Positions 6,027 through 61,719 of a stretch of DNA of 64,000 nucleotides are shown one piece after another. The notes beneath the pieces were generated by a model. That model did no database searches. It was not told the origin of the DNA and saw nothing but the letters and a program-made list of their open reading frames with translations. Source of the DNA: Amoebidium appalachense (taxonomy: Eukaryota > Protista > Ichthyosporea). The translations under genes and the position numbers were made by a program. How positions within the stretch are numbered: position 1 is the stretch's first letter; each line of letters begins with the position of its first letter. The stretch is taken from assembly GCA_963693365.1 (NCBI GenBank), contig CAVNZM010000010.1:2108001-2172000 (forward strand). Direction: 5' to 3'.

Positions 6027-11026
<5,000 letters not shown>

Positions 11027-13913: not shown

Positions 13914-14612
13914 GTGAGGGTAATTACCAGCAACTGTGTGCAAAGAAGGTGGGGACCTATGATCAGTGGTGGTCATTCGTTCAGTGCCAGAGTGAGTTGC
14001 CCTCCCTCCCTCCCCCCCCCTCCCCCCCCCCCCCATCCCCCCACCCCGAGCCCGCGCCGTGTTCTACTTACTGCTTCACTTAAACCCCCGGCCATTCCCA
14101 CTGCCCTTGCCTGTTGCCTGCTCGCGTAACTTACCCTGGTCGCCTCTGATTAAGACGGGTGACCCGCCCATGTTCAAGTGAAGCAGTATCAGAGTTGGGT
14201 TTCGTTGACGAGGGGAATGGGTCGAAACTCGGGTACTGTGGATGACGTGGGCCCCCCCTGATTATGGGCTCTGCTTATTATGCATACCCTTTATTTGTGT
14301 TTGCACTCTGCATCGTGTTGTCCGTTGTTCTTGTGTACTTCGTGCTTTACGCCGCATTCATCCCCCCCCCCCCCCCCCCCCCCCCCCCTTCTCCTCCCCC
14401 TCTTGCGCAGTCTGTTTCCTTTTATGTGTGCTCTTTGGGGGTGCACCTGTTTGGCATAATCTGTCATGTGTTGGGCCTATGTGAACATCCCCTTTTCTCG
14501 TCTCTGGATGACTGGGGTATCCCCAGTCTGTACTTTTTTCTGAACACGTCAGCGTTTTTCCATCTGCTTTGTTTTTTCGCATTGATCTCCTTAGTCCATA
14601 CTGTGAAACAAA

Positions 14613-14645
<33 letters not shown>

Positions 14646-15717
14646 AACCCCACCCCACCCCACCCATCCCCCCCCCCCCCCCCCCCCAAAAAAAAAAAAA
14701 AAAAAAAAAATGAAACATGAAACATGAAAAAAATCCAACCATTAACACCCTCCCACCACCCATTGTTTGTAATAGGTTTCTTCTAGGAATTCAGCCCGCC
14801 AGTGAATTAGGGTTTGTACCTGGAGAGATGCTCATTAAACAGCATTTTGGCCTGAACTGTAAAGGCCTATAATTCGGCCTAAACAAAACCCCCTTCTAAT
14901 GCATACTATGTGTGGCGTGCAATCTCCATTGTGTTGTTTGTCGTGATGTGTACTTCCTACTCTGTAACACATCCTAACCCCCCCCCCCCCCCCCCCCCCG
15001 CTCTTCCCCTTCCCCTCCCCCTTTCCACACACACACTCCCCCCTTTCCCCCCCTCTTCCCCTTCCCCTCCCCCCTTCCACACACGACACTCCCCCCGCTT
15101 ACTGCTGCAACTTTAACCCCCGGCCTTTCCCACTGCCCTTGCCTGCATAAGCAACCCTGCTCGTCTCTGATCAAGACGGGTGACCTACTCATGTTCAAGT
15201 GAAACAGTATCTGAGTTGGGTTTCGTTAACGAGGGGAATAGGTCGAAACTCGGGTACTGTGGATGACGTGGGCCCCCCCTGAGGATGGGCTCTGCTTATT
15301 ATGCATACTCTTTATGTATGGCTTGCATTCTGCATCGTGTTATCCGTTTGTTCTTGTGTACTTCGTGCTTTTTGACGCATTCAAACCCCCCCATAAGCAA
15401 CCCTGCTCGTCTTTGATCAAGACGGGTTGACCCACCCAAGTTCAGTTGATGCTGCTGTCTGAGTTGGAGCGTCGTATATACGCGGGCTAAGGGGTCGAAA
15501 CTCAGACGCAATTGATGACTTGGGCCCTCCCTGAGGATGGGCTCTGCTTATGACGCATACTGTGCGCATGGCTGATGCTGCATACTTGAATGTTTGCCTT
15601 TGCATGTGTCCTGCATCATGCTTCTCATCGTCTATGCGTACTTCGTACTGTGTTCCGCATTCAAACCCCCCCCCCCCCCCCCCCCCCCCCAACAACAACA
15701 ACAACAACAACAACTAC

Positions 15718-16469: not shown

Positions 16470-17276
16470 CGGCGACGGAGGGCGTGTGGGTGTGCGTGAC
16501 TGTGTGGGTACGCTTGTAGGTGCTCGTGTCTGTAAAGTGCGCCCGCGTGTGTATGTCTGTCTGTCTGTCTGCTCTCTTGCATGTGGTTTCTGTGTGTAAC
16601 CTTGCATGGTTACGTGAGCGTACGTGCAGGAGCGTATGCCTGGACATTTGCACACCCTGGGCACTGTTATTGCGGCCGCAGCTGTGTCCCTGTGTGCCTC
16701 TGTGCAGAGTGTGTGTACGTGCTTCTATGCATGTTCTTTGTGTGTGCTTTAATTGCCGAACATCTGTCGAGAATGTGTGCTTCGTACTCTCTAACACATT
16801 CTGACCTTCCCCCCCCCCAACACACACGCACACATACGCACGCACGGACGCATGCACGCACGCACGCGCACAGACATACACACACACTGTGCAGAGTGTG
16901 TGTACGTGCTTCTATGCATGTTCTTTGTGTGTGCTTTAATTGCCGAACATCTGTCGAGAATGTGTGCTTCGTACTCTCTAACACATTCTGACCTCCCCCC
17001 CCCCCCAACACACACGCACACATACGCACGCACGGACGCATGCACGCACGCACGCGCACAGACATACACACACACACGCGCGCGCGCGCGTGCACACACA
17101 CACACACACACAATAGGCGGTCATGCACAGTGTTCATCAACAATGAGCAACACTGTGTGTTGGACGGTGGGTCATGGAGCCCCCCTGTGTGCGAGCACAC
17201 GGAGCAGGACTTGGTCAGGAAAATTTGCTCCTTGATGAAAAACCCCCCTGAAGCGTGCAAGCCAAAGACACGGTAG
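11956..17276 (+). CDS. GILT/IFI30-family lysosomal thiol reductase (fungal/protist MSKCPD type), 6 exons
   Basis: Exons 11956 (or 11983)-12063, 12406-12598, 13126-13241, 13913-13991, 16008-16161, 17117-17276. N-terminal hydrophobic segment, then [74 protein letters not shown]. Confidence 0.88.
14066..14361 (+). mobile_element. Poly(C)-tailed structured repeat, subfamily B copy (more decayed)
   Basis: Colinear with 15096-15385; ends CCGCATTCAT(C)n; CTGAGGA is changed to CTGATTA. Confidence 0.85.
15096..15385 (+). mobile_element. Poly(C)-tailed structured repeat, subfamily B copy
   Basis: Shares CAACCCTGCTCGTC..AAGACGGG, GGTCGAAACTC, CCCTGAGGATGGGCTCTGCTTAT and the terminal CGCATTCAAA(C)n with subfamily A; homologous to 14066-14361 and 62830-62963. 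Confidence 0.88.
15392..15552 (+). ncRNA. Candidate split/pseudoknotted hammerhead-like ribozyme domain of the repeat (representative copy)
   Basis: GUU 15463-15465, GAAA 15497-15500, CUGAGGA 15531-15537; stems I, II and III covary between subfamilies A, B and C (see findings). Activity untested. Confidence 0.6.
15392..15665 (+). mobile_element. Poly(C)-tailed structured repeat, subfamily A copy (GILT intron 4)
   Basis: Reverse complement of the 7011 copy; ends CCGCATTCAAA(C)n; sits directly behind the C-tail of a subfamily B copy. Confidence 0.9.
16701..17077. repeat. Near-perfect tandem duplication of a unit of about 188 bp containing a repeat-family tail and C-run
   Basis: 16701-16887 repeated at 16888-17077. 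Confidence 0.85.
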
Positions 17277-19171: not shown

Positions 19172-29750
<10,579 letters not shown>

Positions 29751-38343: not shown

Positions 38344-47837
<9,494 letters not shown>

Positions 47838-59756: not shown

Positions 59757-59785
<29 letters not shown>

Positions 59786-59788
<3 letters not shown>

Positions 59789-60181
59789 TGAATGCGGAAC
59801 AAAGTACGAAGTACGCATACACGATGAGAAGCATGGTGCAGGACACATGCAAAGGCAAACATTCAAGTATGCAACATCAGCCGTGCGCACAGTATGCGTC
59901 ATAAGTAGAGCCCATCCTCAGGGAGGGCCCAAGTCATCAATTGCGTCTGAGTTTCGACCCCTTAGCCCGCGTATATACGACGCTCCAACTCAGACAGAAG
60001 CATCAACTGAACTTGGGTGGGTCAACCCGTCTTGATCACAGACGAGCAGGGTTGCTTATGCAAGCAAGGAGAGCAAAACGGTGAAGATGTGTGTGCAAAC
60101 TAATGCAGTGCAGCGAAAAACGCGTATGTGCTTACGGATGCACGACACAGAGCAACCATGCCCGGTTGCATGGAAGTAAAG
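59786..60181 (-). mobile_element. Poly(C)-tailed structured repeat, subfamily A, long copy
   Basis: Aligns over about 390 bp with 61333-61719; G-runs on both sides. Confidence 0.9.
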
Positions 60182-61130
60182 AGGGGGGGGGGGAGGGGGG
60201 GGGGGCAAGAAAGGAAGCGCCAAACAGCTACACTCCAAAATAATACTACACAGCCATGACCCAATTATCGAGCAATTTGAATGAAGGTTCAGGTATCCTC
60301 ATACAGGACGAAGTAACTGTTGGTATCTGGCATACGGAAGAAAGCGAAGACTTATTCCGACGATTATAGTAGGTAGTATGTATTCACGACACCCGATAAA
60401 AACTACGCAAATCGCGTGGCGCATACTTAACCTGCAAAAAATATCAAAACCTTGTGTATTCAGCCACGCATTGCTTAGGCGTTCAAGAAGCAAATATCTG
60501 CGTACATCATTAAATTTGAAAAAAAAAATAAAAAAAACAGAAAAGAAAAGAAAAAAACCAAATCACACTTGTACGTCCAAACTTTTTAACAAGCTTTCAT
60601 GGTACGTCCAAACTTTTTAACAAGCTTTCATGTAGTGTGCTCTAACAGTCCCTTGCACCAAGAGCTCCTACTTCACAAAACCCACACCTTCATACACCTT
60701 TAAAAGATCCTCCGAATGCTTCATACAGTGCACACACACACACAACACCGCATGCAGTCTGCACACATCCAAAACCAGAACCAACAAACCAAACACATTC
60801 ACATCGATATCACACACCATACAGGCAGATGGCTGGAGCCGGGCCAGATGCTGGTAGAACTTCGGAGCGGACCCGACCCACGCCCCACACCCCCTCCACA
60901 AAGACTCAGAACCCCCGGTGGTTTTTCAGGTAATCACATACATAGCTGTTAGGGGCAACACATAGTTAGAAAACAGCAGTTTATACTTATTAGTACTCAA
61001 AAAAGATGAAGGTGGAACTAGAAATAAAACCATAACTGTGCATCGGAGTCCAGCAGCAAGCAACAAAGAGGCCAAGCTTTAGTGGTGGTGGTAGTGGCAG
61101 TAGTGTGTGTGTGTGTGTGTGTGTGTGTTT

Positions 61131-61203: not shown

Positions 61204-61332
61204 AGAATGGCTTACAGTACAAGCGCTCTCACGACGGAAAGCATGGTGTAGATTGCAAAGGACACGGGAAGAGTATGCATCGTTAGTAGAGCCCATCCCC
61301 CCCCCCCCCCCCCCCTGGGGGGGGGGAGGGGG

Positions 61333-61719
61333 GTTTGAATGCGGAACACAGTACGAAGTACGTATACACGATGAGAAGCATGGTGCAGGACACATGCAAA
61401 GGCAAACATTCAAGTATGCAGCATCAGCCATGCGCACAGTATGCGTCATAAGCAGAGCCCATCCTCAGGGAGGGCCCAAGTCATCAATTGCGTCTGAGTT
61501 TCGACCCCTTAGCCCGCGTATATACGACGCTCCAACTCAGACAGCAGCATCAACTGAACTTGCCCGTCTTGATCAAAGACGAGCAGGGTTGCTTATGCAA
61601 GCAAGGTGAGCAAAACGGTGAAGATGTGTGTGCAAACTAATGCAGTGCAGCGACAAACACGTATGTGCTTACAGATGCACGACACAGAGCAACCATGCCC
61701 GGTTGCATGGAAGTAAAGA
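61333..61719 (-). mobile_element. Poly(C)-tailed structured repeat, subfamily A, long copy with small internal deletion
   Basis: Same sequence as 59786-60181 but GAACTTG[GGTGGGTCAA]CCCGTC lacks the bracketed segment at about 61562. Confidence 0.9.

Follow-up and report, generated by a model that had tools for sequence, protein, structure and literature searches.

Poly(C)/poly(G) tracts and (CA)n tracts are common in the 64,000-nt stretch of Amoebidium appalachense DNA analysed here (the window). Its minus strand contains two exons of a G-protein alpha subunit (38347-38532 and 39269-39422), for which the best named match is in Sphaeroforma arctica. The last exon (38347-38532) was 94% identical to one EukProt protein and 88% identical to three more, including those of Sphaeroforma arctica and of CFRG, a label that we take to mean Creolimax. 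The same exon was 75% identical to insect matches, with 8 matches among 37 candidates. This one exon thus indicates a likely ichthyosporean host. An exon of a zinc alcohol/sorbitol dehydrogenase (ADH_N) was found at about 25220-25385, also on the minus strand, and the introns beside it, at 23-27 kb, contain several fragments of the repeat described below.

A BLAST search of the window with four long copies of this repeat, which is about 300-440 nt long and has no ORF, identified 27 loci that together occupy about 6% of the window and are mostly 3' fragments. The whole motif considered here was present in seven loci, four of subfamily A, two of subfamily B and one of subfamily C. All seven full copies ended in a C run, their 5' ends were variable, and partial tandems were present. 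On the forward strand, a subfamily A element (15392..15686, hereafter copy A), 5'-truncated at its basal stem and ending in a poly(C) run, was inserted at the short C tail of a subfamily B element (15096..15391). The latter has a C6 tail and an intact motif, with G10.1 at 15182, the k-turn bulge at 15198-15200, U17 at 15217, G12 at 15245 and C3 at 15279. An older B-type copy (14046..14378, forward strand) kept its stems and lost G8. The other full copies lie on the minus strand: a subfamily C element at 6536..6975 (G10.1 at 6763, U17 at 6729, G12 at 6709, C3 at 6673) and subfamily A copies at 6991..7367 (motif intact, U17 at 7212), at 59767..60185 (the longest A copy, motif intact, U17 at 59987) and at 61317..61719, where a 10-nt deletion removes the 5' strand of stem II. 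At 27154..27340 (minus strand) there is a 5'-truncated C copy, which begins some 5 nt on the 3' side of the predicted cut and in which A6 of the core is changed.

No reverse transcriptase or GIY-YIG motif was found in the six frames of the window, and a Pfam scan of 26 of 370 candidate frames gave only host genes; an autonomous partner element was likewise not seen in the window. A covariance model (R1) run on the window recovered no full copies beyond the seven used for training and just three fragments. At least half of the A words were present in 7 further public studies, and 17,922 contigs of run X2 mapped on 15100-15700, a contig depth that is not equated with copy number; the repeat family is thus large and varied.

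The sequence-only reading of this locus had proposed a hammerhead-like ribozyme with a split core and a double pseudoknot. When the copies were read by position, the hammerhead core, the double pseudoknot, the RNA strand and the exclusion of types I, II and III were supported, and the coordinates and pairings given for copy A, the B element, the older B-type copy (at 14161) and the 6.7 kb C copy were all verified. The motif has a full hammerhead core in the order S-G-C, with block C split. Block S of copy A (15457..15469, forward strand) contains the stem III 5' strand (15457-15464) with U16.1 at 15464, U17 at 15465, 3' of which the cut is predicted, and the stem I 5' strand (15466-15469). Block G (15492..15507, forward strand) contains the stem II 3' strand, G12 (15497) to A14, A15.1 and the stem III 3' strand (15500-15507). 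Half of block C (15527..15544, forward strand) consists of the stem I 3' strand (15527-15530), the core from C3 to A9 (15531-15537) and a 7-nt segment after A9 that is common to A, B and the C majority. Stem II (15429-15433 with 15492-15496, forward strand) includes the G10.1-C11.1 pair, and its 5' strand, G10.1 first, is displaced upstream of the cleavage block.

The core reads CUGAGGA in subfamilies A and B and CUGAUGA in C, while GAAA and GUU were invariant in the six copies read by position. Among the seven full copies, CUGANGA was whole in six, and GAAA and GUU were present in all seven. Stems I, II and III, together with G10.1-C11.1 and A15.1-U16.1, paired in all six copies scored; in the seventh, the 5' strand of stem II is missing. 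The core and the three stems were undamaged in five of the seven full copies and damaged in two. Stem I is short (3-4 bp), the cleavage-site triplet is GUU, and stem III is irregular in the sole full C copy of the window. Two C pairings had earlier been composited from the 6.7 kb and 27.3 kb copies; they match the C-family majority letters at places 6659 and 6699 in runs X1 and X2 (X1 possibly having the same source as the window), and the mismatches of the 6.7 kb copy at these places are private to it.

Stems I and II are connected at their far ends by a tether helix, P4, with spacers of 1 nt and 6 nt. In copy A the P4 5' strand (15435..15444, forward strand) pairs with 15516-15524 as 6 bp, a bulged U and 3 bp; P4 is equivalent to the 'I' helix of type-SGC ribozymes. 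Four of its nine pairs changed on both sides in the seven-copy alignment. Between P4 and stem III, a standard k-turn sequence was present in all six copies scored, each with a helix of 3 bp and a bulge of 3 nt, the last of them U, before G.A and A.G. In copy A, the bulged strand of the k-turn spans 15445..15452 (forward strand), with the bulge at 15445-15447 followed by G.A and A.G with 15515 and 15514. The G.A and A.G pairs, the U at the third bulge position, the bulged U and the 6-nt spacing were fixed in 6/6 copies scored, and the 3-bp helix of the k-turn covaried between A/B and C.

According to PMC5061560, a standard k-turn is a 3-nt bulge followed by G.A and A.G that bends the duplex to about 50 degrees, and the k-turn of the SAM-I riboswitch makes it possible for an end loop to dock with its receptor. 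The predicted fold resembles SAM-I in its kinked long helix and docking end loop, whereas the k-turn here would serve the hammerhead core instead. At position 3b.3n the B and C k-turns have A.G (3n = G, the ion-folding type), as does Kt-7. In subfamily A the same position is U.U and is followed by G-U, a pattern shared with box C/D k-turns, which fold poorly without L7Ae/15.5K according to passages of PMC5689011. By analogy, we infer that the subfamily A k-turn would require such a protein (L7Ae/15.5K). The sequence-only reading held that the core could form only if the long stem folded back or through a dimer. A standard k-turn, overlooked at that time, is the likely answer; a monomer fold is plausible because the k-turn would bend the long stem back.

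The discontinuity between A9 and G10.1 is real: the two are some 100 nt apart, G10.1 being the upstream one, with two helices between them. The sequence-only reading had placed a whole junction between the two; their separation was confirmed, but instead of a loose junction they are likely bridged by two helices with spacers of 0-1 nt. One is the closing helix P0, the basal stem of copy A, in which 15392..15399 pairs with 15545-15552 on the forward strand. The other is the hairpin H1 (15405..15427, forward strand), which had been noticed before but is longer than described, with 9 bp, and lies directly 5' of G10.1; it starts with the pairs G-U, C-G, U-G and C-G and has a self-complementary loop. 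In folding calculations the pair probability of H1 was 0.9-0.98 in A and 0.25 in B, with the hairpin ending at G10.1. In addition, 15401-15403 of copy A likely pair with 15539-15541, starting one U past A9; these three C-G pairs had weaker folding support (pair probability 0.32 and 0.19). A pairing of 15400-15403 with the 3' end of H1 was discarded (-7 vs. -14 kcal/mol, pair probability zero). One viroid hammerhead tolerates a single additional nucleotide between A9 and G10.1. In none of the six window matches does a stem II pairing follow straight after A9, as it would in an uninterrupted block C of the canonical SGC form.

Only A showed strong nested folding (z -3.25); the z scores of B and the C copy were -1.19 and -0.33, and the minimum-energy fold of B sequesters the core. 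The H1 loops of A (15411-15420) and C (6772-6779, minus strand) contain 8-nt palindromes with different centres. The linker between stems I and II contains a perfect 10-nt palindrome in copy A (15473..15482, forward strand) and another 10-nt palindrome in subfamily B, and both palindromes are lost in the older B copy. These self-complementary loops of H1 and of the linker are possible dimerisation signals. Calculated self-dimer energies were given no weight, since every hairpin becomes more stable when it opens into a longer duplex.

A split-SGC descriptor gave five matches in the window and four in total in 100 block-wise dinucleotide shuffles, with at most one per shuffle. In a MAFFT alignment of the seven copies, 93.3% of 314 cells paired and 11 of 48 pairs changed on both sides. 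None of 500 shuffles equalled this result, and slid controls paired at 27-43%; these scores are not a probability, since the relatedness of the copies inflates them and the structure was derived from the same copies. Just one of the three pseudoknot changes is visible in this alignment, the others being masked by MAFFT misregistration; the stem I column is gapped, so that its change is unseen there. Read by position, the three subfamilies show two both-sides changes in stem II (pair 4 in subfamily C and pair 5 in subfamily B) and only one in stem I (pair 3, A-U in A and G-C in B and C).

Variation in public runs was also compared with the predicted structure. For copy A, four runs including X2 showed variation at 3% or more in just three motif places out of 161, namely 15434, 15470 and 15525, all of which are unpaired spacers at helix ends; six places varied in the 93 nt after the motif in the same four runs. 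In the B element, the stem II partners 15186 (2.7%) and 15240 (4.1%) varied in the pair-keeping direction in X2, a U-G pair was changed to C-G at 15189 (44%), and a variant at 15235 sits in a linker. Against the structure, the last P4 pair of B (15272/15273) was altered in about 4.5-4.6% of the X2 depth. The C majority letters in X1 and X2 at 6659, 6664, 6699, 6749, 6781 and 6799 restored pairs or the shared post-A9 segment, among the 40 of 124 entries listed. In each of runs X15 and X20, one contig resembled B but differed from it at several places within 15230-15276 and had 4 nt inserted near the 3' strand of the tether; this variant is possibly a fourth subfamily.

In the scheme of Eckert et al. 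2023, a hammerhead is made of three blocks, S, G and C, that can follow one another in six orders, and type SGC was shown there to cleave (PMC10085705). [quoted passage not shown] The same paper reports that type-SGC ribozymes cleave during transcription, that rates were 0.007-0.19 per minute and that the tether helix is necessary in SGC-3. There, block C is assumed to be uninterruptible, and CUGAnGA is said to lie within 1-2 nt of its stems in every hammerhead known (PMC10085705). In the motif described here, A9 and G10.1 are joined neither directly nor by 1-2 nt, the rule for the hammerhead class. Type SGC has a whole block C, whereas the block is split here, leaving the molecule open between A9 and G10.1. 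In the alignment of HRIMA-1 (PMC10085705), the core is followed by one U, stem II, one purine and the tether; the same run of U, stem II, purine and tether occurs here, but it lies upstream, and A9 precedes a U and a different helix. Furthermore, the tether joins stem III on both strands through the k-turn, and the linker between stems I and II is 11-23 nt compared with about 3 nt in type SGC as shown in those passages. The SGC RNAs described there came from metatranscriptomes and none from the genomes of known organisms, whereas the host here is a eukaryotic genomic repeat (PMC10085705).

The novelty of the predicted ribozyme lies in the split, that is, in the upstream position of the stem II 5' strand and in the closing helix and hairpin inserted between A9 and G10.1. 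The motif can thus be read as an SGC ribozyme whose ends were joined, tether to stem III, and which was reopened at the bulged U, where P0 and H1 are placed. It belongs to none of types I-III and, because block C is split, is not strictly type SGC; most likely it works as a hammerhead. The sequence-only reading had suggested comparison with Rfam hammerhead models, a match meaning that the motif is not novel. No match to the motif reached the gathering score; the three local matches were sub-threshold, the best being a partial match to Hammerhead_1 (14.2 bits vs. 34, E 3.2). In an Rfam scan of the window, no hammerhead occurred among the 150 of 442 matches listed, which contained just low-complexity miRNA noise. 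Of 74 loci from pattern scans, 48 in metagenome contigs and 26 in viral contigs, one fitted the descriptor; it reads as unrelated bacterial sequence and was discarded.

In open-licence papers and bioRxiv, the literature searched, we found no published description of a split-core architecture, nothing on hammerheads in ichthyosporeans, nothing that combined hammerhead, k-turn and Penelope, and, in the passages on Naiads, Penelope-like elements and ribozymes, no permuted ribozyme named. The nearest relatives in way of life are the non-LTR retrozymes and the hammerheads of Penelope pLTRs, which are likewise short non-coding ribozyme repeats thought to be mobilised by Penelope-like elements (excerpts of PMC7229834, PMC6765202 and bioRxiv 10.64898/2026.07.22.740005). 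Their ribozymes as described there are of type I, often minimal and dimeric, whereas the motif here is doubly pseudoknotted and split and has a long stem III. Tandem monomers with a type I hammerhead, a trait of animal non-LTR retrozymes, were not seen; the order is S-G-C with a split block C.

Naiads are Penelope-like elements in which, according to passages of Craig et al. 2021 (PMC8557442), there is no canonical hammerhead, and no ichthyosporean is listed there. In the supplement of that paper, the same wiring with unrelated stem sequences was readable in seven Naiad consensus tails from four animal phyla: Naiad_Bfor (Beroe), Amil, Aacu and Anas (Acropora), Plae (Pomphorhynchus), and Obim and Ovul (Octopus). 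These tails were read by eye and unscored, from passages returned by motif searches, with names assigned by file order; they are seven of the 54 Naiad records there. They count as four independent types, because the three coral records are nearly identical to each other, as are the two octopus ones. The order in the tails is closing helix, then hairpin and stem II strand, then 1 nt, the tether and the hinge, then stem III, UH and stem I, followed by a short linker (3-5 nt as read by eye), stem II-GAAA, stem III, tether, stem I-CUGAUGA and closing helix. The coral stem II is GGCUCC/GGAGCC, unlike that of the window, and stem I of the Beroe record has just 2 bp. H1 starts with the same four pairs, GCUC/GGGU, in the ctenophore and coral tails as in copy A, and the helix right after A9 is also readable in Naiad tails. 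At the hinge, the octopus tails have a reversed k-turn and the other tails a bulge or a junction. In several Naiad tails from nematodes and arthropods (Craig 2021 supplement, parts 14-16), the hammerhead-like core has the ordinary order instead, with CUGANGA, a later stem plus GAAAC and long inserts; Naiads may carry two ribozyme wirings. The split wiring was not seen in the Chlamys passages of the supplement that the motif searches returned (PMC8557442).

A fixed 3' end, 5' truncation, partial tandems and a microsatellite target, all traits of Naiad and Chlamys elements, were found in the carrier repeat, whose ends are bound to (C)n as in many Chlamys elements; (C)n targeting is given as a Chlamys trait in passages of PMC8557442. 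Naiads encode an ORF and the carrier repeat has none, and the polarity of the k-turn is opposite to that in the octopus Naiad tails. The carrier is likely a non-autonomous Penelope-like retroposon of Naiad/Chlamys type. The best reading of the motif is that it would be the missing hammerhead of Naiad-type elements, carried in a non-autonomous derivative.

We consider it probable that the motif is a split-core S-G-C hammerhead that folds as a monomer and likely cleaves its own strand 3' of U15465 in A, of U15217 in B and of U6729 in C, as part of what is likely a non-autonomous Naiad/Chlamys-type Penelope-like retroposon. In such a fold, the k-turn would bend stem III back along P4. The end loop of stem III, with the cleavage site and GAAA, would then dock both on the 5' strand of stem II and on the strand of stem I that bears CUGANGA, while P0 and H1 would project as an insert where type-SGC ribozymes have the bulged U. 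The monomer would be cut 3' of U17. Because P0, P4 and stem III (more than 25 bp) would staple the products together, they would probably not be released and the cut would amount to a reversible nick, which might help to form the ends of the element RNA or to circularise it.

All seven copies that span the site retain both of its sides, and none of the 27 loci in the window begins exactly there. Such uncut genomic sites fit templates that were re-ligated or not cut, and fit an inactive scaffold equally well. The motif might accordingly be a non-cleaving scaffold derived from a hammerhead and serve as a recognition or packaging signal for a partner reverse transcriptase or for 15.5K/Snu13, a reading that we regard as unlikely. 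It would agree with the uncut site, with the U.U at 3b.3n of the A k-turn, as in protein-requiring box C/D k-turns (passages of PMC5689011), and with a split between A9 and G10.1 that has no tested precedent in the open literature searched. However, C3, G5, G8, G12, U16.1 and H17 (never G) are kept across the three subfamilies and the seven Naiad tails read, while the stems turn over. For binding alone, such conservation of the catalytic letters would be needless, which disfavours a pure binding scaffold.

Improbable, too, is a hammerhead that is active just as a dimer or across tandem copies, in which one molecule would give blocks S and G and the other the stem II strand and the core, aided by the self-complementary loops. 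Partial tandems exist, the H1 loop stays self-complementary while its sequence differs between A and C, and the palindromes of the linker differ between A and B. However, template switching can perfect palindromes without selection, the older B copy lacks both palindromes, and the k-turn is conserved exactly at the bend required by the monomer. Penelope hammerheads are reported to cleave as dimers in passages of PMC6765202, but those of PMC10085705 describe type-SGC ribozymes with the same tether that cleave in transcription, and the Naiad tails read keep some hinge at the bend, together with a linker of 3-5 nt. Chance pseudoknot pairings in related hairpin-rich repeats are strongly disfavoured: there are just seven related copies from three subfamilies, and stems I and II are short, G/C-rich and beside C runs in a structure drawn from the same sequences, but the descriptor control, the slid controls and the variant pattern in public runs speak against chance, as does the recurrence of the entire wiring with other sequences in the published Naiad tails that were read.

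The monomeric split-core hammerhead could be extended to a broader proposal, which we put forward tentatively and short of calling it probable. The motif would then be a seventh natural hammerhead architecture, beyond the six block permutations regarded as possible, with a core that is open between A9 and G10.1, a closing helix that cages it and a k-turn that folds it. It would be the active, hitherto unrecognised ribozyme of the Naiad clade and older than animals, and in subfamily A it would be switched on by binding of 15.5K/Snu13 to the k-turn, with a reversible nick circularising the retroposon RNA.

If the motif cleaves, the stated rule that block C is uninterruptible would be broken, and it would be explained why descriptor searches missed hammerheads in Naiads, which are among the most abundant retroelement groups of invertebrates. 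Cleavage would also establish a non-circularly permuted hammerhead in a eukaryotic genome and a natural k-turn-gated ribozyme, and Naiad-type elements would extend to a unicellular relative of animals. An RNA of 160 nt, for which a cut site is predicted and natural compensatory variants exist, would make the role of hammerheads in Penelope-like transposition accessible to experiment.

Several degenerate pieces of the repeat were also observed in the window. At 14941-14998 (forward strand) and at 8.7 kb (minus strand), 3' fragments of an older subfamily have a 10-nt stretch before the C run that matches the last 20 nt of the Naiad_Obim consensus, a likeness that could reflect either a conserved end signal or coincidence. 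At 16690-17060 (forward strand), about 187 nt are directly duplicated; they contain a degenerate repeat 3' end, followed by short C and CA runs. At 24592-25151 (minus strand), three pieces of 24-40 nt resemble part of the subfamily C 3' region, and two of them precede C runs.
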